Below, piece by piece: positions 13,832 through 51,497 of a stretch of 64,000 bases of DNA; the stretch's first letter is position 1; the number at the start of each line of letters is the position of its first letter. Below the pieces are notes generated by a model. That model did not search any database. It was not told where the DNA came from and worked only from the letters and a program-made list of their open reading frames with translations. The translations under genes were made by a program, and so were the position numbers. Origin of the DNA: a bacterium (GTDB lineage: Bacteria > Electryoneota > RPQS01); assembly GCA_036504735.1 (NCBI GenBank), contig DASXUQ010000009.1, positions 1 through 64,000 of the forward strand, given 5' to 3'.

Positions 13832-13913
13832 ATACACAATAGCAGGCAGGGCAATGGATCAAACCTGCATACATAGTATACGCGCCACCACCTCGATAAA
13901 CCCTGTGACTCTT

Positions 13914-14679: not shown

Positions 14680-17235
14680 ATGAAGACTTATGCACAGCTT
14701 GTAGCGAGTGCTATGCTCGCACTTCTGATGTGTGCCGGAGCTGCACACGCGAATCAGTTTATCGCCCGTTTGAGCGGAAGCCAGGAGCCGGAACATGTAG
14801 TGACAACGGCGCAGGGCACGGGCACTTTTACGCTGACTGAAGAAGGTCTGGCCTATCATATTACGGTGGACGGACTGAGCGGGCCGATTGGCGCGGCGCA
14901 CTTTCACGACGGAATGATGGGCACCAACGGCGGAATCGTCCGCACGATTGAGTTCAACGGCAACACCGCCAGCGGCATCTGGTCACCGACCGATGCCGAA
15001 CCGCTGACGGACGACATCAAGACCGACCTGTTGCTCGGGCATGTATATGTCAATATTCACACCAGCGAGCACGCCGCAGGCGAGATTCGCGGACAGGTAA
15101 TCGTCAGTTCGGGGACAGCGCTGAGAGCGCGGATTACGCCATTTCAGGTGGCCCAGCATGGCGGACACCGCTCCACGGCAACCGGAACCGGAAGCTTCAC
15201 GCTGGTGGAAGAAGGGCTGCTTTACAAGATTACGATTAATGGGATTCCGGGCTCGGTGGTGGGAGAATTCGGGCTGGGCAAGCCCGGAGTACAGGGACCG
15301 CCCTTGAAGACCATGACCTTTACCGGCAATACCGCCGAAGGAATTTGGCATTATGATGACACGCCGCCCTTGACGGACTCGCTGGAAGCCGAGCTGCTGG
15401 CCGGACATGTCTACTTCGAAATCGGCACCGGCGGGTACTATGGCAATGAAATGAAGGGACAGATTTATCCGTCGGAAGGCTGGGGATTCGAATCGTCCGC
15501 CGATGCCAATCAGGAAACCCATTCCGTGAATTCGACGGGAAAAGCCTCCGGCGCATTCCTGCTGACCGAGCGGGGACTATCGTACAACATTACGGCCTCG
15601 GGATTGACTTCGGCGATTACGGCGGCGGATCTGCATGTGGGCAGCGCGGGGCAGAGTGGCTCGGTAATCAAAACTATTATCTTCAACGGCAACTCGGCCT
15701 CCGGAGCCTGGCTGAAAGATGATGCGGCGCAGCCGTTGACGGCGGACGTGCAGGCGGCGTTGCGCCGGGGGGATGTGTATTTCGAAATCCACACCATGAG
15801 CTACGCGGACGGCGAGATCCGCGGCCAGATGATGCCAGCGACGGGCAGCACCTTTGTTCAGGCGGAATTGTCTTCGGCCCAGGAATTCGATCCGGTGCCC
15901 AGCGGCGCGACAGGCAGCGGCGTGTTCAAGGTTACGCCGCAAGGTCTGGAGTATCATATTACGGTCAGCGGACTCTCCGGCACGGTGTCGGCGGAGTTTG
16001 ACCGCGGCGATATGGGACGCAACGGATCGCGGGTCGGGGAAATCAGCTTTGACGGCAACAGTGCCGATGGCGTCTGGTCGCCCGATGATCATCAGCCGTT
16101 TACTGACAGCCGTCTGATGGATCTGCTGACCGGAAGTCTGTTCATCAACATCAGCACATCGCAATATCCGGGCGGCGAGATTCGGTCGCAGCTCTTTGTC
16201 GTCGGCGGTTCGGGACTCGGCACCGACTTGTCCACGCAGCAAGAGGGGCATCCGGTGACGTCGCCGGGCGCGGGCGTAGGCTCGTTCACTTTGACTCCCG
16301 ATGGATTGGTGTACCAGATTACAGTCAATGATCTCAGCGGTCCGATTGGCGAGGCGCATTTCCACTATGCAGCGACTGGCGAAGACGGCCCGATTGTGCG
16401 CACCATCCCCTTCGACGGCAATAATGCCAGCGGTGTATGGCGCAGCAGCGACGCCGAGCCGCTGACAGATGAATTTGTCGAAGACCTGCTTTCCGGAGAA
16501 ATCTACGTCAACATTCACACGTCATCCTACGCCGCAGGTGAGATTCGCGGGCAGGTCTTCCTGAACAGCGGCATCGGTCTGGGCGCGGGAATGGATCCGG
16601 CGCAGGAGACGCATCCCGTGACCTCCGGCGGCACCGGAACCGTTGCCACGATTCTTACGGAAGAGGCCTTAGTCTATACCGGGACGGTGAACGGTCTGAC
16701 CGGACCCATTGGGGAGACACACTTCCACAATGCCGCGCCCGGAACGGACGGCCCGATCATCAAGACGCTGGAATTCAACGGCACGGCGATTTCCGGTATC
16801 TGGAAAGCCTCAGACTCGGAACCACTGTCGGTGGCCAATATCAATGCTCTGAATGCGGGCAACGTGTATATCAATGTCCATACGTCGCAATTCGCCGCGG
16901 GTGAACTGCGCGGCCAGATGGGCAGTACCCAGGGAGCGTCGGCAGCCGGACCTGTACCATCGAGCAGGCCAAGCAGTTTTGCCCTCGCGCAGAACTATCC
17001 CAATCCTTTCAACCCCAGCACGGTGATTCACTTCGACGCGGCTCAATCGGGGCGTGTGCGATTGACGGTTTTCAATCTGCTCGGGCAGAGAGTGGCAACA
17101 CTGCTGGACAATCCGGTTCAGGCCGGGGCGCATGAAGTCAACTTCAACGCGGCGGCCTTACCGTCCGGCGTCTACCTATACTCTCTCGAAGCTGGAAATA
17201 CGAAACTGGTCCGCAGGATGATCCTCCTGAAGTGA
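14680..17235 (+). CDS. secreted protein with six tandem CHRD domains and T9SS C-terminal sorting domain
   Basis: Signal peptide. Six repeats ending in the CHRD signature (AHFH..G.nGgiV... / GhVYVNIHTs...GEIRGQ). C-terminus LAQNYPNPFNPSTVIHF...LYSLEAGNTKLVRRMILLK. Confidence 0.8.
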   Translation: MKTYAQLVASAMLALLMCAGAAHANQFIARLSGSQEPEHVVTTAQGTGTFTLTEEGLAYHITVDGLSGPIGAAHFHDGMMGTNGGIVRTIEFNGNTASGIWSPTDAEPLTDDIKTDLLLGHVYVNIHTSEHAAGEIRGQVIVSSGTALRARITPFQVAQHGGHRSTATGTGSFTLVEEGLLYKITINGIPGSVVGEFGLGKPGVQGPPLKTMTFTGNTAEGIWHYDDTPPLTDSLEAELLAGHVYFEIGTGGYYGNEMKGQIYPSEGWGFESSADANQETHSVNSTGKASGAFLLTERGLSYNITASGLTSAITAADLHVGSAGQSGSVIKTIIFNGNSASGAWLKDDAAQPLTADVQAALRRGDVYFEIHTMSYADGEIRGQMMPATGSTFVQAELSSAQEFDPVPSGATGSGVFKVTPQGLEYHITVSGLSGTVSAEFDRGDMGRNGSRVGEISFDGNSADGVWSPDDHQPFTDSRLMDLLTGSLFINISTSQYPGGEIRSQLFVVGGSGLGTDLSTQQEGHPVTSPGAGVGSFTLTPDGLVYQITVNDLSGPIGEAHFHYAATGEDGPIVRTIPFDGNNASGVWRSSDAEPLTDEFVEDLLSGEIYVNIHTSSYAAGEIRGQVFLNSGIGLGAGMDPAQETHPVTSGGTGTVATILTEEALVYTGTVNGLTGPIGETHFHNAAPGTDGPIIKTLEFNGTAISGIWKASDSEPLSVANINALNAGNVYINVHTSQFAAGELRGQMGSTQGASAAGPVPSSRPSSFALAQNYPNPFNPSTVIHFDAAQSGRVRLTVFNLLGQRVATLLDNPVQAGAHEVNFNAAALPSGVYLYSLEAGNTKLVRRMILLK

Positions 17236-17311
17236 TCTTCTAAATGACAGCCTTCAAGGCCCGCACCTCTGAACCTATTCATGAACTAACATATTCGTAG
17301 AGGAGAAGGAA

Positions 17312-17710
17312 ATGACCGGCAGAAAAAAGGTCATTCTCGCACTGGCCATGAGTGTGGCCGCACTTCTGATCATCATCGCCGGGTGCAGTAGCAAGAACAG
17401 CACCGGCTACAATAATCCGGTAGGGAATCCGGGCGGCAGTCCGGGCGCTAATGAGGTCTGGATGCAGAACACGCAGTTCAATCCGTCAAGCAAAACGGTC
17501 AGCGTGGGTACCGCGCTTACTTGGACCAATAAGGACGGCATTCCGCATACGGTGACCAGCGGTGCGCCGGGCAGTCCCAACGGCACCTTCGACAGCGGCA
17601 ACATGGCGGGCGGAGCGACGTTTTCGCACACCTTCAGTCAGGCGGGGACATTCCCATATTACTGCCGTATCCACGGCACCATGATGACCGGAAGCATTAC
17701 CGTACAATAG
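17312..17710 (+). CDS. cupredoxin (plastocyanin/pseudoazurin-like blue copper) lipoprotein
   Basis: Lipobox LIIIAGCSS. Cu ligands H..C..H..M in PHTVTSG ... YYCRIHGTMM. SD GAGGAGAAGG. Confidence 0.75.
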   Translation: MTGRKKVILALAMSVAALLIIIAGCSSKNSTGYNNPVGNPGGSPGANEVWMQNTQFNPSSKTVSVGTALTWTNKDGIPHTVTSGAPGSPNGTFDSGNMAGGATFSHTFSQAGTFPYYCRIHGTMMTGSITVQ

Positions 17711-21025: not shown

Positions 21026-22036
21026 ATGAAAGCACGAGTGAACCGGCAGATTCTGCTGGTGAAACGGCCGTCGGGAATGCCCGAGGAGAGCGATTTCCGC
21101 ATGGTGGAATCGCCGCTGCCGTCGCCCCAGGACGGCGAAGTTCTGATCGAAACCCATTACCTTTCCGTCGACCCCTCCATGCGCGGCCGGATGAACGAGC
21201 GCAAGGCGTTCACGCCGCCGTTTGTCCTGAATGAAGTGATCATAGGCAGCGCGGTGGGAAAAATCACGGACAGCCGTTCGCCGCTTTTCCACAAGGGGGA
21301 TTACGTGTCGGGCATGCTGGCGTGGGAGGATTACTCTGTCGCCAACGAAAACAACGTGCGCAAGATCAATCCGGATCTGGCTCCGGTGAGCACGGCGCTG
21401 GGCGTCTTAGGGATGCCCGGTCTGACGGCCTACTTCGGGATGCTGGAGATCGGCAAGCCCAAACCCGGTGAGACGGTGGTGATTTCGGCAGCGGCCGGCG
21501 CCGTCGGCGCGTTAGCCGGCCAGATCGCCAAGCTCATGGAGTGCCGCGTGGTCGGCATCGCCGGCTCTCACCGCAAGGTGAAGTATATGCTCGACGATCT
21601 GGGCTTTGACGCGGCCATCAATTACAAGAATCCGTCGGATATCCGGGCCTCGCTGGGCAAAGCCTGCCGCGACGGTGTGGACATCTATTTCGATAACGTC
21701 GGCGGCGACATTTCCGATGCCGTCTTTGCCCTGATCAACGACAATGCGCGCATCCCGATCTGCGGCCAGATTGCGCTGTACAATATGAAAGAAACCCACG
21801 GCGGACCGCGGGTTCAGGCGCAGCTTCTCTCGCACACGGCGATCATGCAGGGATTCCGGGTCGGGCAGTATGCCGACCGGTTCGAAGAAGGCCGCGCCCA
21901 GCTTTCCGAATGGCTCTCGCAGGGAAAAATCAAAGTGAGCGAGAGCATCGTGGAAGGGCTGGAGAATACGCCGCGGGCTTTTCTGGGACTATTCCGGGGC
22001 GAAAACCTCGGCAAGCAACTGGTCAAGGTGTGCTGA
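21026..22036 (+). CDS. NADP-dependent oxidoreductase, MDR superfamily (YncB/PTGR-like)
   Basis: Motif AAAGAVGALAGQIAKL. Typical zinc-independent MDR. Confidence 0.85.
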   Translation: MKARVNRQILLVKRPSGMPEESDFRMVESPLPSPQDGEVLIETHYLSVDPSMRGRMNERKAFTPPFVLNEVIIGSAVGKITDSRSPLFHKGDYVSGMLAWEDYSVANENNVRKINPDLAPVSTALGVLGMPGLTAYFGMLEIGKPKPGETVVISAAAGAVGALAGQIAKLMECRVVGIAGSHRKVKYMLDDLGFDAAINYKNPSDIRASLGKACRDGVDIYFDNVGGDISDAVFALINDNARIPICGQIALYNMKETHGGPRVQAQLLSHTAIMQGFRVGQYADRFEEGRAQLSEWLSQGKIKVSESIVEGLENTPRAFLGLFRGENLGKQLVKVC

Positions 22037-22101
22037 TCCGGATTCGTCCGGTTTCCGCAGACTCACGCAATTTTCGATTTCAATAGATGCCTCAAGGGAG
22101 G

Positions 22102-22219
22102 CTCTTCGCAGGCCACTGTCACGAGATGTTTGGACTTACACATTCTTCTTCGGCTGGCGATAGGTTATCAGGTGGCAGGAAGGGGACGCCATCCCCGCCA
22201 ATCCGGAAAGGATCATATC
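22102..22219 (+). promoter_or_regulatory. conserved 5' leader of RRM gene (shared with leader at 39146..39258)
   Basis: Blocks ctcttcgcaggccactgtcacgaga, ttcggctggcga, and hairpin gggacgccatccc immediately 5' of the SD ggaaagga. Confidence 0.55.
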
Positions 22220-22495
22220 ATGGTCAACATTTACGTGGGCAATCTGTCCTACAACACGTCGGAAGACGATCTTCGTCAGCTCTTCGAATCGCACGGCACG
22301 GTCGACCGCGCCAACCTCGCGATGGACCGTGGCACGGGCCGCGCCCGCGGCTTCGGCTTTGTGGAAATGCCGAATGACGCCGAAGCGAGAACCGCCATTG
22401 ACTCGCTGAACGAGACCGAACTGGGCGGCCGCAAGCTGATGGTCAACGAGGCCAAGCCGAAGGTCGAACGCAGCTCGCGCCAGGACCGCTGGTAA
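22220..22495 (+). CDS. RRM-type RNA-binding protein (glycine/arginine tail)
   Basis: MVNIYVGNLSYNTSEDDL. RNP1 RGFGFVEM. Confidence 0.9.
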   Translation: MVNIYVGNLSYNTSEDDLRQLFESHGTVDRANLAMDRGTGRARGFGFVEMPNDAEARTAIDSLNETELGGRKLMVNEAKPKVERSSRQDRW

Positions 22496-22516
22496 GCGCC
22501 AAGTTCTGATACACGT

Positions 22517-22547
22517 AGCGGGGCGGACCTTTAAGGTCCGCCCCGCT
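22517..22547 (+). terminator. GC-rich hairpin after RRM gene
   Basis: agcggggcggacc tttaa ggtccgccccgct. No clear T-run. Confidence 0.45.
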
Positions 22548-22587
22548 ATGACTCATCGGCTGGAAACCACGACAGTGAGAATACCCT

Positions 22588-22890
22588 GTGATGAACGGCA
22601 AGCAATTCGGTTTTGAAGAAGCGAAGCGGATCGGTGACGCGCTGGGCGCGGACTGGAATATGTTTCCGGTCGAACAGTTCCGCCTCGGTCTGGGTGTGGA
22701 ACTCGAGCATGGCAGCAGGGATCCGCAGACGGATGTCACCCATGACGATCTTCTCTTGACCGGACGGATTGTGTGGGCACACCTGAAAGAGATTCCCGAC
22801 TACTACACGCGCCTTCTCAAAATGGAGAAAGAAGCGGGCAAGTACTGGGCCTCGGAAATGAACTTTCCCCGGAAGAACCCCGGACGCTGA
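22588..22890 (+). CDS. conserved hypothetical protein (DUF-type)
   Basis: 100 aa. Motif LTGRIVWAHLKEIPDYYTRL. Confidence 0.5.
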   Translation: MMNGKQFGFEEAKRIGDALGADWNMFPVEQFRLGLGVELEHGSRDPQTDVTHDDLLLTGRIVWAHLKEIPDYYTRLLKMEKEAGKYWASEMNFPRKNPGR

Positions 22891-22984
22891 CCGCACAACC
22901 GGCTTATGACCGCCTCGCACTGACCTTTGTGAAGTTTACTTTGCAAAGGTTTTTTGTGCCTCGAACCGCTTCGCGAGAAGAGGT

Positions 22985-23347
22985 TTATTTCATCGAGAGG
23001 CAGGTGAAGATCCGGCGCGAACTGCCGTCCTGCAACGGAATGGGCGCTTCCATGATGCGGCGGATACTGTCGGGCGAAATCCGGGCCGGATCATAGGTGA
23101 ACACCGCGCGATGCTCGGTGGCATACGTTTCGATGGCCGCAACGCCGGGGGTCTCTTCGTAGAGACGGGTAAGAAAGGCCGCGGTTCCTTTGCATTTCAA
23201 ACCCTGCACCGTGCAGGAAATCTTCTGGCCGCCCTTTCCACCAAGGGAGATATTCGTGGTGGGCTGTGTGAAGACTGAGCGCAGCACATAGCCTCCCAAC
23301 AGCGTCGCCAGCACCAAAAGGGGCAGAATATAGCGGGGGAGTTTCAT
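22985..23347 (-). CDS. membrane-anchored HMA-like (ferredoxin-fold) protein with atypical C-x6-C site
   Basis: Signal/anchor. KISCTVQGLKCKGTAAFLTRL...VAAIETYATEHRAVFTYDP resembles an HMA domain but lacks MxCxxC. Confidence 0.4.
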   Translation of the reverse strand: MKLPRYILPLLVLATLLGGYVLRSVFTQPTTNISLGGKGGQKISCTVQGLKCKGTAAFLTRLYEETPGVAAIETYATEHRAVFTYDPARISPDSIRRIMEAPIPLQDGSSRRIFTCLSMK

Positions 23348-23366
23348 CCGAGTCCTCCGGCAAAGG

Positions 23367-24146
23367 TTACAGGGTGGCTTTCAGTTCCAGAGCGTCTTTG
23401 ACCGGACACGCATCCACGCACTCCAGACAAAGGGTGCAGTCGCGGTGACGCAGCTTGACCACCGATTGCGGAGCAAGGTTCTGCGGACACTTTTTCTGGC
23501 ACACATTGCACATGGTGCAGGTCGCTTCGTTACGAACGACCTTCAGGACACCGAGGCGGCTGAGCGGGTCCAGCGTGGCTCCCAGCGGGCAGAGGTAGCG
23601 GCAGAAGAACATGGGGATAAGCAGCGCGCCCGCCACCAGAGCGCCCAGCACGATCCAGCTCGTGATGCCCAGTGCGCCGTGCCCGAAGCCGGAGAAGATC
23701 AGAAAGAAAGGATCGTAGCCGCGCAGAATCAGTTCGCCACTCTTGTAGGTAAAGTACAGCGTCAGCGCAAGGGCCAAATAGCGCAGACCTTTTAGAGCGC
23801 TGTTCACTTTGGGCGAAGGTTGCGGCCTTTTCTTCCAGAATAGCCCCGTGAGACGCGCGCCAAGCTCTCCTAAGAAGCCGATAGGACATGCCCAGCCACA
23901 GAAAGCTTTCTTGGCAACGAGCGCCAGCAACAGCACGCCGATCAGCAGCGAGAGATTCAGCGGCCCGAGAGTGCAACTGAATTCACGAGTCTGATACAGG
24001 CCCCAGAGGCTTTCCACTCCGCCGAACGGACAGAAATCTTCGAAGGACCGGCCGCCAAAACCGAGCGCCAGATAAGCCACGAGGGCAAGGATGACGCTGA
24101 GCAACGAGTAGCGCAGCCAGCGGGTGGAGGGAGTCCGTTTCTTCAT
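23367..24146 (-). CDS. NapH/MauN-like membrane polyferredoxin (4Fe-4S binding)
   Basis: CGWACPIG and CRYLCPLG TM-associated motifs. C-terminal CTMCNVCQKKCP ... CTLCLECVDACP clusters. Confidence 0.7.
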   Translation of the reverse strand: MKKRTPSTRWLRYSLLSVILALVAYLALGFGGRSFEDFCPFGGVESLWGLYQTREFSCTLGPLNLSLLIGVLLLALVAKKAFCGWACPIGFLGELGARLTGLFWKKRPQPSPKVNSALKGLRYLALALTLYFTYKSGELILRGYDPFFLIFSGFGHGALGITSWIVLGALVAGALLIPMFFCRYLCPLGATLDPLSRLGVLKVVRNEATCTMCNVCQKKCPQNLAPQSVVKLRHRDCTLCLECVDACPVKDALELKATL

Positions 24147-24256
24147 ACGCGAACATATCCTGAGATAGATGTGGGCGGCACAAGCACAAAAGGCGGGCAG
24201 GATCCGTCCCGCCCGCCTTCTGCTCGATAAACCTGTTCGATTCTTACGCCGTCCGG

Positions 24257-24667
24257 TTACTTCTTGGGAGTGCAGCCAGCTTTAGCTTTCATGGGGCAGC
24301 CGCCGCCGGACATGGTGGCGCACTTGGTGGGATCACACGTTCCCGCCGCAGCGGTTTTGACCGCGCCGGTCTTCATCATTGCTCCGTGGTTCTGGCAATT
24401 GCCGGGGCAGCGACCGTCTTTCTTGCACTGCTCCATGTTGACGCACTTTCCGTCCTTATGATGGACCGCCATGCTGTCGCACACGCCGTCCTTGTTGCCG
24501 TCCACGAACTTTGCACAGGTCGCCGCGCAGGTATGGCCTGCCATGGTGGCCGTCGAATCTTTTGCCGGGGCCTTCATGGCCGCATCTTCCGAGAAGGCGG
24601 ATCCGGCGAGACCGATCACAAACATCAACGCCAGCGAGATGAACACCAAGGTCGCACTCTTCTTCAT
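24257..24667 (-). CDS. secreted Cys/Met/His-rich putative metal-binding protein
   Basis: Signal peptide. 16 Cys in 110 aa (HTCAATCAKF, CDSMAVHH, CPGNCQNHGAMM, CDPTKC, GGGCPM). Confidence 0.55.
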   Translation of the reverse strand: MKKSATLVFISLALMFVIGLAGSAFSEDAAMKAPAKDSTATMAGHTCAATCAKFVDGNKDGVCDSMAVHHKDGKCVNMEQCKKDGRCPGNCQNHGAMMKTGAVKTAAAGTCDPTKCATMSGGGCPMKAKAGCTPKK

Positions 24668-24693
24668 GACTTTCCCTTTCGAAATCGAATGAC

Positions 24694-25233
24694 TTATTTC
24701 CTATCGTTCCGGATATGATTTTTCTGGCAACCGGTTTGTTCGCCGCTCATTATGCCGGCATGTCCCACGCAGCCGCCGTTGTTGCGCATCATGGCAAACA
24801 GGGTTGTCTGCTGCGTGGCGTTCAGCACACGTTTTTCCTCGAGCAGATGATTAACTACCAGCCGCTGCATGCGTTGCTGCACCGTGCCGATCTCACCTTC
24901 CTTGGCCTCAATCGCCACCGGGTTAACCTGCGGCTCGGCCAGCAGGTCCATCAGTTGCCCCCGCAGAGAGTCGGCGGTGGTGCCCAGTGTTGCGGATGCC
25001 GTTTGGAAATCCCGCTGCAGTGGTTCCAGGGAGCGCCATTGTTCGGCGGTAGTTCCCAGCGCGCGGTGCAGAGGGCACCAGATGCGGCAACTGCTGTCCG
25101 GCATGCAGACGGTCTTTTGAGGTCTGGCCGCGCGCGCGGTCTGCGTGAGCGTCTTCATTCCCCACGCAGTGACGAACGCGACGTTCAGGCTGACCGAAAG
25201 GATGATGAGCAGAATGCGAGTTCTGGAGTGCAT
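24694..25233 (-). CDS. periplasmic heavy-metal sensor (Metal_resist/Spy-CpxP-like, LTxxQ motifs)
   Basis: Signal anchor. LNATQQ-type repeats. Typical partner of ECF/anti-sigma pairs. Confidence 0.55.
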   Translation of the reverse strand: MHSRTRILLIILSVSLNVAFVTAWGMKTLTQTARAARPQKTVCMPDSSCRIWCPLHRALGTTAEQWRSLEPLQRDFQTASATLGTTADSLRGQLMDLLAEPQVNPVAIEAKEGEIGTVQQRMQRLVVNHLLEEKRVLNATQQTTLFAMMRNNGGCVGHAGIMSGEQTGCQKNHIRNDRK

Positions 25234-25236
25234 GGC

Positions 25237-25740
25237 TTACCTCCCGCCATCGGTTGGAGCGGCGAGAGTCAAGTAGACTTCCGCAGGCGATCCGCCGGGG
25301 CTGTCGGACAGGTAGTCCGCATGAATGGAAGAGGCAGGATCGGGATCGGGCACGGTGGCCGCAACCATCGGAACACGCGTCACACCGGCAGAATTCCATC
25401 CCAGCCATGTTCCTACGGACAGGCCGACCATCAGCACGATTACCGCAGCGGCGCGCATGGTGGACGGTAGGGCCTCCCACCAGTCTATATGCAGCAGGCG
25501 ACGCGGCTTGGGGGAAGCCAGTTGGGTTTGACCGCGCGCCACAATCCGTGCCGCAAGCCCTGCCGGGACCTCGGGGATCACGCTTTCCTGCACTGTGGAG
25601 GCCAGCCGTTCGAGCCGCGCCATTTCCTCCCGGCACTTCTCGCAGGAGCGCAGGTGTTCTTCCACCGCGGATCGCTCTGTGGCGGACAACTCGCGGTCGG
25701 CAAATGCGCCAAGCTGATTTCGAATTCTATCGCATGTCAC
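25237..25740 (-). CDS. anti-sigma factor (zf-HC2, single TM)
   Basis: HLRSCEKCR zinc finger. TM AAAVIVLMVGLSVGTWLGW. GTG 25740 preceded by AGGAGGAG. Confidence 0.7.
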   Translation of the reverse strand: MTCDRIRNQLGAFADRELSATERSAVEEHLRSCEKCREEMARLERLASTVQESVIPEVPAGLAARIVARGQTQLASPKPRRLLHIDWWEALPSTMRAAAVIVLMVGLSVGTWLGWNSAGVTRVPMVAATVPDPDPASSIHADYLSDSPGGSPAEVYLTLAAPTDGGR

Positions 25741-25810
25741 GGCTTTTGAACTCCTCCTATCTATAAACGGACAACCTTGCAAAATCCCCCGCCGTCCCTC
25801 AACTACCGAG

Positions 25811-26356
25811 CTAATCCCAGTCCTTTAAAGTATTTCCCAGTGCCTCGCGGCCTCTTGCCAGCAGTCGCTCCACCGCTTTTTCTGTCGTGTCCATGGCTTC
25901 AGCAATGTCGCGGTAACTGCAATCCTCGTAATAGCGGAGGATGATGGCCAGCCGCTGATTAGGAGGCAAGAGGGTAATCCCGCGCCGCACCGCTGAAGCT
26001 TGCTCCTCGCGGACGACAATTCCATCGGGCAACGGCGAAGTATCCGCACATTCGGGCAGTTCATCGCAGACCACAGGCCGTTTCTTTTCCATATGATCCA
26101 GGCACAGACGGCAAATAATGCGGGAGAGATAGGTTCGGAAGGACGCGGTGGGGCGGTAGCGCGCGGCGGCGGCCAGCAATCTTAGAAAGGCATCCTGCAC
26201 CAGATCTTCGGCATCTTCCCGGTTGCCGACAAAGCGGTACGCAACGCTCCACGCGAACGCCTGATGCCGCAGGACAATCTGTTCGAAAGCCTGCACATCT
26301 CCCTGGCCCGCGGCCAGCATCAGCTCGTCGTCGCGTGGAGTTTGAATCATGGCCAT
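25811..26356 (-). CDS. ECF RNA polymerase sigma factor
   Basis: Region 2 (DAEDLVQDAFL) and region 4 (SYRDIAEAMDTTEKAVERLLARGR). ATG 26356 or 26350. Confidence 0.85.
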   Translation of the reverse strand: MAMIQTPRDDELMLAAGQGDVQAFEQIVLRHQAFAWSVAYRFVGNREDAEDLVQDAFLRLLAAAARYRPTASFRTYLSRIICRLCLDHMEKKRPVVCDELPECADTSPLPDGIVVREEQASAVRRGITLLPPNQRLAIILRYYEDCSYRDIAEAMDTTEKAVERLLARGREALGNTLKDWD

Positions 26357-26387
26357 CAAATTAGCAAAATAACCGGCCCAAGTCAAA

Positions 26388-26415
26388 TGAAAGAACCAGC
26401 CCACGCTGGTTCTTT
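26388..26415. terminator. bidirectional hairpin terminator between YeeE-rhodanese and ECF genes
   Basis: gaaccagc ccac gctggttc flanked by A/T runs. Confidence 0.55.
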
Positions 26416-26453
26416 TTCGATACCATCCTGTTTGGGCAGCAACCCACTGCGGG

Positions 26454-27647
26454 TCAGCAGCCACCCTTGATCTTCTTCTCGGTCTTGACCGCCTTTGGCG
26501 CGATATTCTTGCCGGCATCAATCATGCGGGCAATCTCGGCGCGGGCGGTTTGACGGAAGGTCTTGACGTCGTTGTCCCAGCGGCTGCCGGTGGGCACAAA
26601 GGCTGTCGAGTCCAGAATGACATGCTTGAACGTCGGAAGTCCACCTTCAAGCGCCGCCACATTTTCATAACCGAGGCTCTGCAACAACAGGCAGCCCGCC
26701 TTCTCTTGTGCCTCGTCATCAGCCACGATCACCTTTTTAACATGCCGCTGCGAGAACAGCGCGGTATTATCTTTGCTGAAGAAATCACGCAGGGAAATGT
26801 TGCGGGATCCGGGAAGAGCCAGCTTGGCAAACTGCTCGGGGCTGCGGATGTCCACCATCTGCAGACGCGTCTCCTTGTCCACCAGAAGATATGCCAGTTC
26901 ATCCACGGGCATGACCTTGACCGGATGCGCGGCGACATACCCTGCACTGGAAACCGTGCTGATCATGTGCGCCTTGCGCTCGGGCAGCACCAAAAACACC
27001 AGCCCCAGGGCAAGCACGCCGATGGCCGCAAGGCGGTGCTTGGACAGATTGAAGTCCCGCGACAATGATGCGGAATTGACCTTGCGCTCAATAATGGTGG
27101 TGATGGCAAAGGCGCTCACCGCCACGGCAATCAGGATGAAGGCAAACAGTCCACCGGAAATTCCCAGAGAGTCATAGACCCGCACCGGACCTAAGGCGGT
27201 GGAGTTGAAGAAAGTTTTGAACAGCGGAAACATCTCGCCAAACACAAAGACCCCCAGCAGTCCGCCGCCCACAAAGAACATCGCATCCACTTTGCCAATG
27301 GCCGCCGCGCACACACTGGTGCCGGGGCAATAGCCGCCCAGCACAAAACCTAATCCCATAATGGCCCCACCCACAACCGCCGGCCAGAGCCAGGTGGGAT
27401 TGATGTAGATGGCTTCGGTATCGAGCAGGCCCGCGTAGCCGAGCAGCAGGATGCCGCTCATCGCCGTTACGGCGGCAGTGAAAAAGACACGCAGCACGGT
27501 GAAATCATAGCCATAGAAGACTCCGGCCAGGCGGCGCGAGGACGAAAAGCCCGCCTGTTCCAGCACAAAGCCAAAGGCTATTCCCAGGATCAGCGCCACA
27601 ATTAAATTGAGCTGATCGGAGATGAGGTCAGGAACGAAGGGTCCCAT
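26454..27647 (-). CDS. YeeE/YedE-family sulfur-compound transporter fused to C-terminal rhodanese domain
   Basis: GGYCPGTSVCAAAIG motif. Downstream rhodanese-like block (VDIRSPEQF...). Confidence 0.7.
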   Translation of the reverse strand: MGPFVPDLISDQLNLIVALILGIAFGFVLEQAGFSSSRRLAGVFYGYDFTVLRVFFTAAVTAMSGILLLGYAGLLDTEAIYINPTWLWPAVVGGAIMGLGFVLGGYCPGTSVCAAAIGKVDAMFFVGGGLLGVFVFGEMFPLFKTFFNSTALGPVRVYDSLGISGGLFAFILIAVAVSAFAITTIIERKVNSASLSRDFNLSKHRLAAIGVLALGLVFLVLPERKAHMISTVSSAGYVAAHPVKVMPVDELAYLLVDKETRLQMVDIRSPEQFAKLALPGSRNISLRDFFSKDNTALFSQRHVKKVIVADDEAQEKAGCLLLQSLGYENVAALEGGLPTFKHVILDSTAFVPTGSRWDNDVKTFRQTARAEIARMIDAGKNIAPKAVKTEKKIKGGC

Positions 27648-27668
27648 AATATTCTTTTGCTTTCTGCC

Positions 27669-28181
27669 TTAGATCCAGAGTTTGCGGAAGAAGTAGGCGA
27701 CGGCGAAACCCGTGCCGAAGATCGCAAGCATGGCGATAAACCCTGCGGTGGACAGTACCGCCATGCCGCTTAAGGCCGCGCCGCTGGTACAGCCCCGCGC
27801 AAACTGGGCTCCCGCGCCAAACAGGGCTCCGCCGATCACGGCGAAAATCCAGCGCAGTTTCGGCTGCACGCGCGGTCCGGATTCCGTCACCACTTTCAGG
27901 CGATCCGATACGAGACCCGAGATAAACGCACCGATCAGCACGCCGATCACTTCGAACACCAGCCACGATTTCATCGGGCTCTCCTTGCCCTCGCCGAAGT
28001 AGGACCCGAAGAAGGTGGAGTGTTCGGCATGAGCCGGAGCAATCGCATGGACCGTCGTCAGAACCACGTCCTTGACCGCGCCGCTTGCTCCGAGGCCGCG
28101 GCCCGTGATAAAGATGGTCGCCAGCAGCACGAGGCCCAGAAAGAAACCGGCGAGGTAGGGATTCATGTATTTGGTGTTCAT
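27669..28181 (-). CDS. YeeE/YedE-family membrane protein
   Basis: ARGCTSGAALSG motif. ATG 28181 in ATGA overlap with the cytochrome b stop. The upstream 130 aa of the track ORF overlaps cytochrome b and is rejected. Confidence 0.7.
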   Translation of the reverse strand: MNTKYMNPYLAGFFLGLVLLATIFITGRGLGASGAVKDVVLTTVHAIAPAHAEHSTFFGSYFGEGKESPMKSWLVFEVIGVLIGAFISGLVSDRLKVVTESGPRVQPKLRWIFAVIGGALFGAGAQFARGCTSGAALSGMAVLSTAGFIAMLAIFGTGFAVAYFFRKLWI

Positions 28182-28780
28182 TTCAGATCCTCGTAGCCGG
28201 TGATCATTGCTTTCAGATTGGAGGTCACGCTCGATCCGGTGGTGATGAGATACACGTGTGCGATAAAGAAGCAGACCAGCGCAAACGCGCCGAGCGTATG
28301 GACCAGCGCAATGGCTTTCAGGCCGCCGACATTCAGGCTGATCACGTCGTGCCGCTGCGGATAGCGGTAGAACATGTACAACAGCCCGGATACCGCCATT
28401 ACCGGAATCACCAGCGCCTTCAATCCCGCGTAGACGAGCTTCTGCAACGGGTTCAGCTTGCTCAGTACCTGCTTTTTGGTAGGATGCGGAGCGCCGCGGA
28501 AGATGCCAAAGATGTAATAGTTGACCTGAGCGCGCAGATGCTCCCGTGTGGGCAGGTACTGCCGCCATTCGCCCGTGGTGAAATGCCAGAAGACGGCGAA
28601 GACAATCAACACGAGAAAGCCAATGGCCGAGCTGTTGTGCAGAGCGACCGCCTGCCGGAAGCCGAAGAAGTGAATGGCGCCGTGGATCTCGAAGCCGGTT
28701 ACGCCAAGCATAAGAATCACGGCCGCCTGCGTCCAGTGCCAGAAGCGCTCAAAGGCGCGATAGACATAGTCGTGTTTCAT
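28178..28780 (-). CDS. b-type cytochrome membrane subunit (PhsC/FdnI/HyaC-like)
   Basis: 200 aa, 4-5 TM with conserved His. Adjacent to a multiheme c. Confidence 0.65.
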   Translation of the reverse strand: MKHDYVYRAFERFWHWTQAAVILMLGVTGFEIHGAIHFFGFRQAVALHNSSAIGFLVLIVFAVFWHFTTGEWRQYLPTREHLRAQVNYYIFGIFRGAPHPTKKQVLSKLNPLQKLVYAGLKALVIPVMAVSGLLYMFYRYPQRHDVISLNVGGLKAIALVHTLGAFALVCFFIAHVYLITTGSSVTSNLKAMITGYEDLK

Positions 28781-28781
28781 A

Positions 28782-30344
28782 TCAGCGGCCTCCCTTCCGC
28801 TTGCGGCTCACGACGACCCGGGCGCCACCGTGCGCTATCACTCCTGCAAGGGTCATCAGAATCATCGCCGCGCCGAATTTTTCCAGCCCCGCGCTGTAAT
28901 TGCGGCCCGGCATGTAGAAGTCGTTCAGGCCGGCCAAGCGGCTATCGGTGCGCGTATGGCATTCATTGCACTGCACCACGCTGGTTTTCGGCGAGACCAT
29001 GTGATTGACAGGCCAGTACATTTCGGTTTCGGCAAAACCGTATTTGCCGCTGTAAGGAAGGTCGACCCGCTTCATGCCTTCTTCAGCGGCACGGTTCCAG
29101 TTGAATTCCTTCCAGTAGCCGCCATCACCGGCGACTGTTGAAAACGTCTTGGGCTGAATCAGATAATGGTTCTGCGTATCGTAAATCTGTTTGGTGCGCA
29201 TGATCTTCACCGGGATGATCTTCGCCTCGGGATCGTTGTATGCGCCATAGAGCGGGTTGATCTTCAGCGGCTGGGAAGGATCGAAGGTATCACCGATCAG
29301 GTAATGGGACGCCGTGCCGTTGAACCACACATAGTCCGGCTTCAGATTCTTGCCCCAGCGGAAGGAGCCCTTGATCGACATGTACACATCGTCGCCCGTC
29401 GAGTCCTTCTCTTCGTACGGCTGACCGTCCTTGAGTTTTCCCGCCGTGGACCAGTCCCAATCGGTCTTGGTGGGATTGACTTTGGCATAGGTGGGGATGT
29501 GGCAAGTTTGACAGGCGACCTTGATGGTGTGCTTGTTCAATACATCATCGGAATGCGGCAGGGCGCTGTGGCAGCTTTCGCACTCGGCGCGGTTACGGTT
29601 CATCGAAGAGACCGAGAAGGCCTTGCCGAGCATCTGATGCTTGCTGGCCGTGTGGCAATCCACGCACTGCATGTCTTCGCCGTCGGAGGCCATGTGCACG
29701 TCGACATCGCGGGACGGGTCAAACAGAGCTTTCTCCAGATCGCCGTGCTTGACATTGTTCCCGCCGCCGCCGAAAAAGTGACAGGTTCCGCAGTTCGTGC
29801 GCTGCGGTTTTCCCACGTGCTGCGCCACAGTGGCCAAGTCCACCGACGGATCGGGATTTCCCGCGCCGGCTTTGATGTAGCTGTTGCTGTTGTCATGGCA
29901 GGCGAGGCAATCGACGTTGTAGGCATTCTGAAAATCGAAGGAAGGGCTGTCATAGCCGTAGCCGATGTGGCAGCGGTTGCAGCTCGGTTCGTTGCCGGAA
30001 ATGCCGATGCAAAAATTATTCAGGATGTTTCGCTTGCCGACAGTACGAATGCCCTTGCCTTCGACATACTCTGTGCGTTCCCAATTCCAGTGGGACGACT
30101 GCATCACTTCCTTGTGCCGTTCGGTGTGACAGGAGATACAGGCTTCGGTAACCTCCTGCGGTTTGCCGAAGCGCTTTTGCAGCACCGCGAACCGGGTGTG
30201 ATCTACCGAAGGCTTTTCCTTCTTCTGATAGCGGGCTTTCAGTGCGGCCAAGGGTGTTTGATCCTCACTCTTTTTCGGCAGCACGCTCAGCATGAGGGCA
30301 AGCACGGCACCGAAAACAAGCAGGACCAGAAAAATACGTTTCAT
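28782..30344 (-). CDS. octaheme c-type cytochrome (tetrathionate reductase Otr-like family)
   Basis: Eight CxxCH (CISCH, CNRCH, CLACH, CGTCH, CVDCH, CESCH, CQTCH, CNECH). Signal peptide and C-terminal hydrophobic anchor. Confidence 0.6.
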   Translation of the reverse strand: MKRIFLVLLVFGAVLALMLSVLPKKSEDQTPLAALKARYQKKEKPSVDHTRFAVLQKRFGKPQEVTEACISCHTERHKEVMQSSHWNWERTEYVEGKGIRTVGKRNILNNFCIGISGNEPSCNRCHIGYGYDSPSFDFQNAYNVDCLACHDNSNSYIKAGAGNPDPSVDLATVAQHVGKPQRTNCGTCHFFGGGGNNVKHGDLEKALFDPSRDVDVHMASDGEDMQCVDCHTASKHQMLGKAFSVSSMNRNRAECESCHSALPHSDDVLNKHTIKVACQTCHIPTYAKVNPTKTDWDWSTAGKLKDGQPYEEKDSTGDDVYMSIKGSFRWGKNLKPDYVWFNGTASHYLIGDTFDPSQPLKINPLYGAYNDPEAKIIPVKIMRTKQIYDTQNHYLIQPKTFSTVAGDGGYWKEFNWNRAAEEGMKRVDLPYSGKYGFAETEMYWPVNHMVSPKTSVVQCNECHTRTDSRLAGLNDFYMPGRNYSAGLEKFGAAMILMTLAGVIAHGGARVVVSRKRKGGR

Positions 30345-30434
30345 ACTCCATCTTCCTTCCTTGCGAATTTTCGTGCAAGGATAGGCTGTGAAAAGCCTGC
30401 CGTTCATCATCGACACGGCAGGCAGCTATCGTTG

Positions 30435-30824
30435 TTATGTGAGGCTGGCCAGCGCCTTTTTCATCAGACTTCGCGCCTGCGCCCCATGCGGCGTCAAGAC
30501 GGGATCGCCAAGGGTTTCTACCACGGTGCCAGGATCGAGCGCCCAGACAGAGACGGTGTCATCCTCTTCCTGCCGCAGGCATACGGAGCAAGGCAGAAAC
30601 ACGCCGACTTCCGGGCGCACCGCCAGCGCTCGGTGGGCGATCTGCGGATTGCAGGCGCCGAGTATCCGGTAGGGCGCGGTGTCCACACCCAGCTTCTCCT
30701 TGAGCACCTTGTCCGCTTCGATCCGGGTCAGGATTCCGAAGCCCGATTCTTTCAGCGCGGCGGTGATGCGCGTTTCCACATCATCGATAGTGCCATGCGC
30801 GCGAGTGGATAGCACGAAGTTCAT
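30435..30824 (-). CDS. DUF302 domain protein
   Basis: GFGILTRIEADKVLKEKLGVDTAPYRILGACNP. Confidence 0.8.
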   Translation of the reverse strand: MNFVLSTRAHGTIDDVETRITAALKESGFGILTRIEADKVLKEKLGVDTAPYRILGACNPQIAHRALAVRPEVGVFLPCSVCLRQEEDDTVSVWALDPGTVVETLGDPVLTPHGAQARSLMKKALASLT

Positions 30825-30827
30825 GGT

Positions 30828-31217
30828 TCAGGAGTCCTTCACGACCGGCAGCGGCGCCAGTTTGTCGAGCTTCTGCCGCAGGGTCTCGATGGGAATCAAG
30901 CCCACCACCTGATCCACGATCTTGCCGTCCTTGATAAACATTAGGGTTGGGATGCTGCGGATGCGAAAGGCGGAGGCGGTCTGCATGTTCTGTGACACGT
31001 TCAGCTTGAAGATGTTCACACGTCCCACATATTCCGGGCCGAGGTCCCGCAGTAAACCGCCCATGACCTGGCAAGGCATGCAGGTCGGCGACCAGAAGTC
31101 CAGCAGTACCGGGAGTTCGGATTTAAGAATATCCTGATCGAAGGTGGCGTCGCTGGTTTCCATCGGCTTGCCCGGCTTAACCTCGCCGCCATTGAAGAGG
31201 GATTTGAAAATACTCAT
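30828..31217 (-). CDS. thioredoxin (variant WSPTCMPC active site)
   Basis: Trx fold. ATG 31217. Confidence 0.8.
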   Translation of the reverse strand: MSIFKSLFNGGEVKPGKPMETSDATFDQDILKSELPVLLDFWSPTCMPCQVMGGLLRDLGPEYVGRVNIFKLNVSQNMQTASAFRIRSIPTLMFIKDGKIVDQVVGLIPIETLRQKLDKLAPLPVVKDS

Positions 31218-31279
31218 CGTCTGTGCTCCTTGCACGTTCCGTTATTATCCTGCATCTTCATAAACTAAGAATCCATTTG

Positions 31280-31945
31280 TCAGCCGTGCACCACGGGCAT
31301 TCCCGCCGCTTTCCATTCGGCCACGCCATCGCCGAGGCGGATCGCTTCGAAGCCCTTGCTGCGCAGTACCCGCACAGCTTCTCCCGCCAGCACGCAGTAC
31401 GGTCCGCGGCAATAGGCCACAATCTGCTGTCCCTGCGGGAGACGGTCCAGATGGCTTTTCAACTTGTCCAGCGGAATGGAGAGCGCGTGAGGAATATGCT
31501 CGGCGGCATACTCATCTTCCGGCCTGACATCCAGCATGATAATCTTTCCGCCCTTGGCCAGCTTCAGGAGCTTGTTGCGGTCGATGATCTCGACCTCTTT
31601 AGGATCATCGGTGATGTCGGAGAGCACGCGCTCGACTTCGGCCAGGCGGGACTGGGCGACCTTCTTCATATTGCTGACCAGATCATAGACCTGTCCGTCG
31701 GCCAACCGATAGAACACGTAGATTCCTTCGCGCCGGGTCTCCACCAATCCCGCACCTCTTAGAACCTGCAGGTGCCGCGAGGTGTTGGCAATGGTCATTC
31801 CGGTGTTGGCTACCAGCGTCTCGACACTCTTCTCGCATTGGTGCAAAAGTTCTAAGAGTTCCAAGCGTTTAGGGCTGGACAGTGCGTGTCCAATTCTGGC
31901 GAACTGCTCGTTGAGCTTGTCTTTGATATCCCGGACGGTCGGCAT
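31280..31945 (-). CDS. ArsR-family HTH regulator fused to rhodanese domain
   Basis: ATG 31945 with AGAAGGAG SD. Rhodanese active-site Cys in YCRGPYC. Confidence 0.75.
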   Translation of the reverse strand: MPTVRDIKDKLNEQFARIGHALSSPKRLELLELLHQCEKSVETLVANTGMTIANTSRHLQVLRGAGLVETRREGIYVFYRLADGQVYDLVSNMKKVAQSRLAEVERVLSDITDDPKEVEIIDRNKLLKLAKGGKIIMLDVRPEDEYAAEHIPHALSIPLDKLKSHLDRLPQGQQIVAYCRGPYCVLAGEAVRVLRSKGFEAIRLGDGVAEWKAAGMPVVHG

Positions 31946-31961
31946 AATTTCTCCTTCTATC

Positions 31962-31981
31962 ATTCAATCGAACGCTTGAAT
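31962..31981. promoter_or_regulatory. inverted repeat ATTCAA-N8-TTGAAT 17 nt upstream of ArsR-rhodanese start
   Basis: attcaatcgaacgcttgaat. Confidence 0.45.
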
Positions 31982-32059
31982 ATACGAAAAAGATCCACCA
32001 GAGTCAAGTCCCCCCTGTCGGAACATTACTATTTCCATGGTAGCTGTGAACTTAAGTCA

Positions 32060-32095
32060 ATAAAAACGGCTGACCTTCCGGGTCAGCCGTTTCAT
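32060..32095 (-). terminator. strong rho-independent terminator after ArsF-like gene
   Basis: aacggctgacc ttcc gggtcagccgtt followed by TTTTTATT on the minus strand. Confidence 0.7.
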
Positions 32096-32115
32096 GTTCA
32101 GTTTATGGCGCGCGG

Positions 32116-32565
32116 TTACTTTGCGTTCAGGTAAGCGCGGACTTCATTCTGCACATACGTGAGATAATCCGGTTTTGCTCCCACCAGCTCCCAGATCTTC
32201 TCGCAATTCTTCCAGTGTGCCTGCTTGCCATCCTCCAGACGAACGATGATCAGCGACTTTGTTTCCAGCTTGAAATCGTTCCAGAAGTGCTCATACTCCT
32301 TTTGGCCCGTGTCGTAGCTGTGCCATTCAACGGTGCCCTGTTGCAGCTCTTTGGCAAAGCCCGTCTCCACGGCCTCTTTGGCAAAGGCTTCCATGTTGAT
32401 ACAGGTCTCACAACGGGGCGTAAAGTAAAGGTAGTAAACCACCACTTTGGGATTGGACGCGGCTTGAGCGTGGACGCTGTCGGCAACGGCAGGGACGGCC
32501 TCTTCGGCCCGCGCGGGCAGCGCCGCCAGGATCACGTACAGTATTATCTGAAACGCGAACTTCAT
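32116..32565 (-). CDS. secreted thioredoxin-like CxxC protein, ArsF-like family
   Basis: Signal peptide. VVYYLYFTPRCETCINMEAF resembles the thioredoxin-like 'nitrophenyl nitroreductase subunit ArsF' family. Family assignment from memory. Confidence 0.4.
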   Translation of the reverse strand: MKFAFQIILYVILAALPARAEEAVPAVADSVHAQAASNPKVVVYYLYFTPRCETCINMEAFAKEAVETGFAKELQQGTVEWHSYDTGQKEYEHFWNDFKLETKSLIIVRLEDGKQAHWKNCEKIWELVGAKPDYLTYVQNEVRAYLNAK

Positions 32566-32583
32566 GCTTCGGTGCTCTTTGGG

Positions 32584-33240: not shown

Positions 33241-33273
33241 CTTACACTCCGCTCAAAGATTTTCGGCTTGAAA

Positions 33274-51493: not shown

Positions 51494-51497
51494 CGTT

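Follow-up and report, generated by a model that had tools for sequence, protein, structure and literature searches.

The question raised by this locus is whether six neighbouring genes constitute a single metal-stress operon or a combination of parts with separate histories. They occupy positions 22985–26356 of a 64,000-nucleotide stretch from a bacterium of the GTDB lineage Electryoneota (RPQS01; assembly GCA_036504735.1, contig DASXUQ010000009.1, positions 1 to 64,000), hereafter the window, and were initially described by a model working from the letters alone (the original prediction). Open reading frame (ORF) and Pfam analysis of the window placed all six on the minus strand, co-directional and with the coordinates originally given, encoding in order of transcription an extracytoplasmic function (ECF) sigma factor, a zinc-finger anti-sigma factor, a Metal_resist sensor, a secreted Cys-rich protein, a membrane polyferredoxin and a small protein with a heavy-metal-associated (HMA) fold. 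The original prediction regarded them as a metal-stress regulon in which one operon drives three effectors, the last three products. The sigma/anti-sigma/periplasmic-sensor logic does resemble that of a metal-stress ECF system, whereas the single operon gained no support: the cassette proved to consist of two evolutionarily separable parts, the ECF module with its Cys-rich gene (part A) and the polyferredoxin/HMA pair (part B). In functional terms, the cassette probably serves to cope with metal or thiol stress at the envelope. The window belongs to a 968-kb contig of JGI metagenome 3300035523 (Ga0376481_000006; NCBI locus tag VGL38_07675), and type IX secretion sorting domains encoded nearby, together with homologue taxonomy, put the organism among FCB-type candidate phyla.

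Five contigs carry these six genes in identical order, namely the window and four others (L003, a 461-kb contig; L064; L065; and a 5142-bp JGI contig), and the neighbourhood conservation that had been suggested as a check is therefore present. Upstream flanks vary among the four contigs long enough to show them, comprising YeeE/rhodanese and cytochrome genes in the window, a two-component system in L003, ArsR, Acr3-like, ArsP, thioredoxin (Trx) and CcdA genes in L064, and TauE, FmdE and a cation diffusion facilitator (CDF) transporter in L065. Because the gene order recurs in four contigs with different upstream flanks, the clustering of the six genes exceeds chance. The window and L003 share 67% identity in the sigma factor and 68% in the HMA-like protein. 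The cassette is rare yet conserved, its hosts being uncultured sediment-type bacteria, and the combination is uncharacterised, as had been held from the start.

Part B has a distribution of its own. A scan of one genome per species recovered 53 loci, all of them (53/53) with the polyferredoxin gene immediately upstream of the HMA-like gene, in metagenome-assembled genomes (MAGs) labelled Zixibacteria, KSB1, Calditrichaeota, GN15, LCP-89, Eisenbacteria, Ignavibacteria and others. In 52 of these 53 genomes the pair stands without the sigma module. The exception, L044, carries the pair upstream of the module, thus in reverse part order, and branches outside both the cassette clade and its stand-alone sister group; this arrangement suggests either an ancient linkage followed by loss or a second juxtaposition. 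The L044 locus (Microflora Danica MAG, CAVTJX010000016.1, 7270-10100) contains apparent frameshifts that break up the genes for the polyferredoxin, the sigma factor and the Metal_resist protein and join the anti-sigma and sensor reading frames; these are probably long-read indel errors rather than signs of pseudogenes.

Between the two parts lies a feature that the original prediction overlooked, a hairpin with a U-tract inside the gap that precedes the polyferredoxin gene. In all four cassettes read at this point (window, L003, L064 and L065), a GC stem of 13-17 bp stands directly after the stop codon of the Cys-rich gene; its position is kept while the sequences differ, and the T-run is canonical in L065 (TTTTTT), reasonable in the window and weaker in L003 and L064. 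The element may be read as a terminator, an attenuator or an mRNA-stabilising structure, and, since an Rfam scan of positions 22000-27000 at E <= 1 gave zero matches, it is not a known riboswitch or leader. Only 31-53 nt, C-rich and lacking promoter-like boxes, separate the hairpin from the polyferredoxin ATG in the four cassettes, whereas the DNA in front of stand-alone pairs in the sister clade is AT-rich and contains boxes resembling TTGACA/TATAAT (sigma-70-like). The simplest reading, which we infer from these upstream regions, is that the pair of the cassette clade has lost its own promoter and would be expressed through attenuated read-through from the sigma operon. The claim of one operon driving all three effectors is thus left unsupported on two counts: the conserved terminator-like hairpin sets the Cys-rich gene apart from the last two genes, and these form an autonomous, widespread pair.

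The features of the locus are collected in Table 1. Intergenic spacings, from the sigma gene onward, are 70, 3, 26, 110 and 19 nt; the gaps of 30 nt or less originally reported hold for three of them, while the sigma/anti-sigma gap is wider and the gap before the polyferredoxin gene exceeds the 89 nt that had been given. The boundary hairpin placed at 26388-26415 is real, with a slightly shorter extent, lies between the YeeE/rhodanese stop codon (26454) and the sigma gene, and has an analogue in front of the L003 sigma gene; its description as bidirectional is meaningless here, because no gene on the plus strand converges there. The earlier domain calls stand, and the statement that no efflux pump lies in or adjoining the cassette was likewise borne out.

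Table 1. Features of the six-gene cassette and its boundaries (window coordinates)
Feature	Position	Strand	Basis
5' boundary hairpin, 11-bp stem	26390..26415	-	Terminator-like scan; between YeeE/rhodanese stop and sigma gene
ECF sigma factor, 181 aa	25811..26356	-	Sigma70_r2 + Sigma70_r4_2
Single-pass ZAS-type anti-sigma factor, 167 aa, GTG start	25237..25740	-	zf-HC2
Metal_resist sensor, membrane-anchored, periplasmic, 179 aa	24694..25233	-	PF13801
Secreted Cys-rich protein, 136 aa	24257..24667	-	Zero Pfam matches; signal peptide
Intercistronic GC-rich hairpin, then UUUUGUG	24184..24223	-	RNA fold, z = -2.8
Membrane polyferredoxin, YccM/CcoG/NapH superfamily, 259 aa	23367..24146	-	Fer4_5
Membrane-tethered HMA-fold protein, 120 aa	22985..23347	-	Ferredoxin-like HMA fold; C52-K-G-T55 in place of CxxC
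3' boundary hairpin	22922..22951	.	Terminator-like scan; between convergent HMA-like and DUF5661 genes

The sigma factor is of the ECF type (group 4), with sigma2 and sigma4 domains only in about 180 aa. Pfam matches comprise Sigma70_r2 (4.7e-20, residues 28-93) and Sigma70_r4_2 (1.1e-15, residues 123-173), and the NCBIfam model for the sigma70-ECF superfamily, TIGR02937, scored 116.7 bits against a cut-off of 42.9; none of the NCBIfam equivalog cut-offs was reached, the best being PRK05602 with 153.9 bits vs 208. Comparison of homologue N-termini left two alternative starts, 26356 and the ATG at 26350, and a start within this range is also backed by a Logan call of 179 aa. The JGI call, of 217 aa, begins within the preceding YeeE/rhodanese gene and crosses the boundary hairpin (26356-26521).

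The anti-sigma factor matched zf-HC2 (E = 1.6e-11), and its GTG start at 25740 (MTCDR...) agrees with five homologues and with both public gene calls; the gap to the sigma gene would shrink to 28 nt only with an unsupported TTG start. The motif C3-x25-H29-x3-C33-x2-C36, invariant across the six aligned homologues, combines H-x3-C-x2-C with an upstream Cys ligand, as in zinc-binding anti-sigma (ZAS) proteins, and the same alignment revealed one conserved transmembrane (TM) helix and, on the periplasmic side, a tail of about 50 aa that is likewise conserved (H.DYLSDSPSGSPA.VYL).

The sensor exceeds the PF13801 cut-off (35.2 vs 29.2 bits). Across 18 aligned homologues, W52-C53-P54-L55-H56-R57, E70-P71 and E133 are invariant, H129 is kept in at least 90%, and the TM helix has conserved S13, L16, N17, F20 and W24; cassette-linked sensors carry the additional Cys residues C43, C49, C154 and C168. 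The best specific matches of the family among PDB profiles were CnrX and NccX, with weak E-values of 0.08-0.5, in an alignment that sets H56 on CnrX His46, H129 on His119 and E133 on Met123. We infer metal sensing from these aligned CnrX ligand positions. In the CnrYXH system, metal bound by membrane-anchored CnrX alters its grip on CnrY, at both the TM helix and the periplasmic tail, so that CnrH is set free (PMC6851896), which offers the best available model for the sigma/anti-sigma/sensor trio. The conserved TM residues of the sensor, together with the conserved TM helix and tail of the anti-sigma factor, would fit a contact of the CnrX-CnrY type.

The secreted protein contains 11 Cys, not the 16 originally counted, as well as 10 Met, 4 His and many Lys, behind a signal peptide (…AGSAFS/ED). 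A Pfam scan gave zero matches. Its motif C-x3-C-x2-F-V-D-x-N-K-D-G-V-C-D is accompanied by KDGxC repeats. Homologues are rare, with 9 among 5.8 billion proteins and a few more recovered from loci. The gene directly follows the Metal_resist gene in the window, L003, L044, L062, L064 and L065, and on the contigs with P0006, P0135, P0002/P0132 and P0005/P0137; on the short P0007 contig only an unidentified 86-aa fragment lies upstream. Since the Metal_resist gene stands upstream wherever it is identifiable, the Cys-rich gene is the constant fourth, and last, gene of the sigma module. The L064 copy (6565-7005) was left uncalled by JGI, which called an opposite-strand ORF of 87 aa instead; small Cys-rich genes of this family are hence under-counted in protein databases.

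A profile search of 1.84 billion representatives retrieved mainly small secreted proteins with C-P-x-F-V-D-x-N-x-D-G-x-C-D, often repeated, the relationship being mostly at the level of the motif. These remote relatives remain below Pfam thresholds (Excalibur, 21.9 vs 22; LNR, 14.7 vs 21.2; a faint EF-hand). Within the family itself D55-x-N57-x-D59-G60-x-C-D63 is present and conserved. As this Cys-flanked DxNxDG motif, similar to a calcium loop, is the sole widely conserved element, the Cys may be partly structural, forming a Ca-stabilised disulfide module rather than metal thiolates. A scan of metagenome contigs for further loci yielded one distant case (L063:454-825, on the low-GC contig JGI20214J51650_10325946), in which an ECF sigma gene precedes a secreted protein of (M)KDGKC hexapeptide repeats, a distant relative that ties such proteins to an ECF sigma factor in a second and different way.

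The polyferredoxin matched Fer4_5 (E = 1.8e-16) and has four TM helices, two cytoplasmic CX3CP motifs and two CxxCxxCxxxC(P) [4Fe-4S] motifs. Across 53 homologues the motifs FCGWACP, FCRYLCP, CTMCNVCQKKCP and CTLCLECVDACP are conserved, as are all 14 Cys, including a pair in the family-specific first periplasmic loop, C39 (in CPFGG) and C58; the homologous loop of Escherichia coli YccM, RPGGIEGW, is without Cys. BLASTP aligned YccM at 102 bits (E = 5e-30, 30% identity from TM2 to the C-terminus) and E. coli NapH at 68.6 bits (4e-18, 29% identity over 192 residues). The label NapH-like therefore holds for the superfamily only: the protein lies below the NapH/MauN cut-offs and, by sequence comparison, is nearer to YccM, a CcoG homologue. 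A true NapH was rejected on TIGR02163 (97.8 bits vs 213.05), PRK09477 (82.3 vs 234) and the BLASTP ranking, and neither a NapG/MauM-type partner nor nap or mau genes occur at the window locus or in the 53 related loci. A true CcoG was rejected for want of a FixG_C match; Fer4_18 reached 18.8 bits against a cut-off of 27, and no cco genes lie near the polyferredoxin gene in the window. The cupric reductase CcoG has two [4Fe-4S] clusters and is believed to supply Cu(I) to CopZ, YccM is its shorter homologue, and in Archaeoglobus fulgidus CopZ an HMA domain is fused to an Fe-S reductase domain (PMC7558416).

The last protein of the cassette has the beta-alpha-beta-beta-alpha-beta pattern of a ferredoxin-like fold and scored 21.2 bits with the Pfam HMA model (PF00403), below the cut-off of 24.8. 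It belongs to a tight family of at least 130 proteins of about 120 aa, 52-79% identical. The metal loop reads V-x-G-x-K-C52-K-G-T55-A (G-L-K-C-K-G-T in the window) in place of GMTCxxC; C116, in an extra C-terminal strand, is conserved at 98%, C45 at 79%, and E78-H79 are conserved as well. An N-terminal TM anchor with conserved P9, G19, Y20 and R23 is followed by FTQPTT. Because the N-terminus is positively charged (R/K at positions 2 and 5), an N-in topology with the domain facing the periplasm is weakly suggested. A chaperone of the MerP/CopZ type was rejected, CxxC being replaced by C-K-G-T.

Taken together, these features are compatible with a CnrX-like, envelope metal-sensing ECF module coupled by attenuated read-through to a CcoG/CopZ-like pair, a reading that we favour tentatively and, as a whole, rate at somewhat less than an even chance. 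By analogy with CnrYXH, a periplasmic ligand would bind the sensor at C53/H56 and H129/E133, which correspond to CnrX His42/His46 and His119/Met123. Since a Cys replaces one CnrX His, the ligand would most likely be a thiophilic divalent or monovalent metal. Once the ligand is bound, the sensor would grip the anti-sigma factor differently, at its periplasmic tail and TM helix, and so release the sigma factor, which would then transcribe its own operon, ending with the Cys-rich protein as a periplasmic binder or buffer. The hairpin would pass only a fraction of the transcripts into the polyferredoxin/HMA pair, for which the cassette clade shows no separate promoter-like sequence. The pair might act like CcoG plus CopZ, with electrons given by the cytoplasmic [4Fe-4S] clusters and metal handed over by the HMA domain, probably in the periplasm; the periplasmic Cys pair of the polyferredoxin may participate. 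The Hg, Cu or Ag specificity and the redox detoxification of the original prediction are purely conjectural.

Several observations weigh against this proposal. On the side of the sensor, the CnrX matches are weak, C53 is one residue off CnrX His42, CnrX Glu63 lacks a conserved counterpart, the Metal_resist clan includes the chaperones and stress sensors Spy and CpxP, and JGI names the homologues 'Spy/CpxP family protein refolding chaperone'. A distant trio of sigma, zf-HC2 and Metal_resist genes (42% identity; P0144 contig, JGI 3300072015, 110,893 bp) is followed by genes for OEP, a membrane-fusion protein, an ATP-binding cassette (ABC) ATPase and two MacB/FtsX permeases, which is not a metal system; the same sensor type is thus wired elsewhere to an efflux pump. 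The full ZAS motif permits a cytoplasmic thiol-oxidation input instead. Among the outputs, the one element of the Cys-rich protein that is broadly conserved looks like a Ca-binding DxDxDG/LNR/Excalibur loop and hints at structural disulfides, its AlphaFold2 model (mean predicted local distance difference test score, pLDDT, 44) leaves the fold unassignable, and one homologue has a DedA gene next downstream; the HMA-like protein lacks the second Cys of CxxC, with Thr in all 33 aligned members. As for transcription, a sigma-70 promoter scan of 22000-27000 found none, and bipartite-motif enumeration upstream of the sigma genes of L001, L003, L065 and L044 gave no shared -35/-10 pair; an ATTTGA(C/A) box recurs there, inconsistent with any -10. 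No ECF promoter is hence definable, and sigma control of the downstream genes is only proposed. Lastly, as regards the linkage itself, the pair is free of the module in all genomes of the scan except L044, clustering of 1015 flanking ORFs revealed no recurrent neighbour of stand-alone pairs beyond generic families, and all same-order cassettes form one clade in a neighbour-joining (NJ) tree of the polyferredoxin (a single protein, no bootstrap), so that they count as one evolutionary origin.

The signal might be something other than metal. In one alternative, which we consider unlikely yet of real weight, the cassette answers envelope thiol, redox or sulfur-species stress: the ZAS anti-sigma factor or the Cys-bearing sensor would detect oxidants, electrophiles, sulfide or polysulfide, the Cys-rich protein would serve as a sacrificial or buffering periplasmic thiol protein, and the polyferredoxin and single-Cys HMA protein would form an Fe-S-driven thiol/disulfide or persulfide relay. 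The invariance of the full RsrA-type C-x25-H-x3-C-x2-C motif agrees with such an input, although many ZAS proteins are not redox sensors, and so do the extra Cys of cassette-linked sensors; the sensor, however, is a member of the CnrX family in which, by a weak profile match, two CnrX ligand positions are still occupied by His. The periplasmic Cys pair of the polyferredoxin, lacking in YccM and in a loop that cannot be aligned with NapH, and the two separated Cys of the HMA-like protein (C52 and C116, not CxxC) would suit thiol chemistry, while the HMA fold and the kinship with CcoG/YccM point to metals. Genomic context is similarly divided. The L064 sigma gene lies 18 nt after genes for Trx, CcdA (DsbD_TM) and a secreted CxxC protein, the last two of which have orthologues upstream in the window; YeeE/rhodanese, an ArsR-rhodanese regulator and DUF302 are encoded directly upstream there, and a CCP_MauG peroxidase gene follows the cassette in L064 and L065; the Trx/CcdA linkage is nevertheless confined to the two closest relatives, L003 and L065 being flanked otherwise. 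General envelope folding stress, in which misfolded proteins would titrate the Metal_resist protein as a Spy/CpxP-like periplasmic inhibitor or chaperone while the Cys-rich protein would simply be a stress-induced envelope protein, appears very unlikely. It draws on membership of the CpxP/Spy/ZraP/CnrX clan, a faint LTXXQ match in homologues, the JGI names, the presence of Spy in the PDB profile list (E = 5.2) and the MacAB/OEP pump adjoining the distant trio. Yet CnrX and NccX outscore Spy, the invariant Cys, His, His and Glu fall, in a weak alignment, on CnrX ligand positions, and the sensor, with its membrane anchor and conserved TM residues, is like CnrX rather than the soluble Spy and CpxP.

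Whether the two parts work together at all is a separate matter. They could be independent adjacent units, a four-gene ECF operon closed by a true terminator and a housekeeping pair (e.g. for cuproenzyme maturation) that landed beside each other in one lineage; we regard this as improbable, though hardly far-fetched. It is consistent with the stand-alone pair in 52 of 53 genomes and in variable contexts, with terminator-like hairpins in 4/4 cassettes, canonical U-tracts included in the window and L065, with monophyly of the same-order cassettes as a single event, and with the genes after the Cys-rich gene, DedA in one contig and convergent genes in L044. Set against this, adjacency persists even though upstream flanks have changed and the window and L003 have diverged in sequence, L044, outside the cassette clade, has its own arrangement with the pair ahead of the module, and the short promoterless spacers of the cassettes differ from the boxes found before stand-alone sister-clade pairs. 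A bolder variant, which strikes us as quite unlikely, would make the pair a trans-membrane redox device, passing electrons from the [4Fe-4S] clusters to the periplasmic Cys pair and on to a metal or thiol on the single-Cys HMA protein, and wired in one lineage to a CnrX-like ECF sensor and the Cys-rich DxNxDG family. If true, the pair would be a metal reductase facing the periplasm, or would take the place of CcdA/DsbD by an Fe-S-dependent route.

The surroundings of the cassette in the window are varied. Directly upstream, a block of sulfur and thiol-redox genes (26454-34367, minus strand) encodes a YeeE/YedE-rhodanese fusion, a second YeeE half, a cytochrome b, a 544-aa multihaem cytochrome (Cytochrome_cB), DUF302, a thioredoxin, a regulator combining an ArsR helix-turn-helix (HTH) domain with rhodanese, DUF6064, DsbD_TM/CcdA, a further thioredoxin and a secreted 149-aa protein with a PRCETC CxxC motif and no Pfam match. 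L064 orthologues of the CcdA (74% identity) and CxxC (57%) proteins are encoded directly upstream of the sigma gene, from which about 5.5 kb of YeeE/cytochrome genes appear to have been inserted at this point in the window. At the 3' end, genes for a bacterial RRM_1 RNA-binding protein (22130-22495, plus strand; 79.7 bits) and for DUF5661 (22588-22890, plus strand) converge on the cassette. The CCP_MauG-type di-haem cytochrome c peroxidase gene after the HMA-like gene is found only in L064 (8303-9421) and L065 (8346-9371); tblastn of the window with the L064 protein at E <= 1e-5 gave zero matches. Further away, at 13815-17710 (plus strand), genes for a YceI-like protein and a plastocyanin/azurin-type cupredoxin accompany one for an 851-aa CHRD protein that bears a type IX secretion sorting domain, showing that the organism has a copper protein and a type IX secretion system. 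A TetR regulator, an outer-membrane efflux protein, a membrane-fusion protein and an AcrB-type resistance-nodulation-division (RND) pump (935 bits) are encoded at 50849-57141 (plus strand), about 25 kb from the cassette and unlinked to it.

Among described systems, part A comes closest in gene order to ECF281, whose neighbourhood comprises the sigma gene, a zinc-finger anti-sigma gene at +1 and a heavy-metal-resistance (PF13801) gene at +2 (Casas-Pastor et al. 2021, NAR; PMC7826278). ECF281 is among the groups over which the members of the former group ECF20 were scattered, and it is related to CnrH (ECF291), an experimentally confirmed Ni/Co system (PMC7826278). The window order is identical, the likeness being assigned by gene order and not by a group model, and the same order is found in L003, L064, L065, the 5142-bp contig and the P0144 contig. 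The published description of the group includes neither the Cys-rich gene nor the polyferredoxin/HMA pair, both of which are attached in the window. We know of no characterised member of ECF281, a bioinformatic group, and the explicit output genes of the cassette (Cys-rich protein; polyferredoxin and HMA-like protein) offer a tractable entry to the signals and outputs of systems of this type.

With CnrYXH and NccYXH of Cupriavidus metallidurans (ECF291; Ni/Co), the module shares an anti-sigma factor that crosses the membrane once, has a short periplasmic tail and would hold an ECF sigma factor, and a membrane-anchored, periplasmic four-helix Metal_resist sensor with conserved His residues that a weak profile alignment sets on CnrX His46 and His119. 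In the window the anti-sigma factor, a 167-aa ZAS class I protein, departs from the short CnrY type, the genes run sigma / anti-sigma / sensor instead of Y-X-H, His42 is exchanged for a Cys offset by one residue, Met123 for Glu, Glu63 is not conserved, and a CnrCBA-type efflux pump is missing. Membership of CnrYXH was rejected because of the ZAS anti-sigma factor, the different gene order and the lack of a pump. The Cys-rich protein and its remote relatives recall Excalibur (DxDxDGxxCE) and Notch LNR in their Cys-flanked DxDxDG-like loop; the window protein differs in that it has no Pfam match, contains KDGxC repeats as well as 10 Met, and has Cys in odd number.

Part B resembles CcoG (FixG) and YccM in combining Fer4_5 CX3CP motifs and two C-terminal [4Fe-4S] motifs in a membrane protein, and recalls CcoG/CopZ in the genetic pairing of the polyferredoxin with an HMA-fold protein. 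It differs from CcoG in lacking the FixG_C Ig-like domain and any ccoGHIS or cbb3 context, from both CcoG and YccM in its extra conserved periplasmic Cys pair (CPFGG...C), and from CcoG/CopZ in an HMA partner that is membrane-tethered, probably periplasmic, and without CxxC. NapH, MauN and NosH share the four TM helices, the two CX3CP and the two [4Fe-4S] motifs, whereas the window protein has no NapG-like partner, no nap, mau or nos genes and an N-terminal loop that cannot be aligned. Compared with MerP, CopZ and Atx1, the HMA-like protein has C-K-G-T, an extra C-terminal strand with C116, a TM anchor and FTQPTT. The function of the pair could illuminate E. coli YccM, which has no assigned function, and would extend CcoG, so far the sole known class of specific bacterial cupric reductases. 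Should the ordinary reading prove right, the cassette is one more lineage-specific envelope stress regulon. The type of regulatory architecture and the HMA and polyferredoxin folds are already known; what is new is the six-gene combination, the Cys-rich DxNxDG family as a constant ECF output, and the strictly conserved YccM-like/HMA pair across several candidate phyla.

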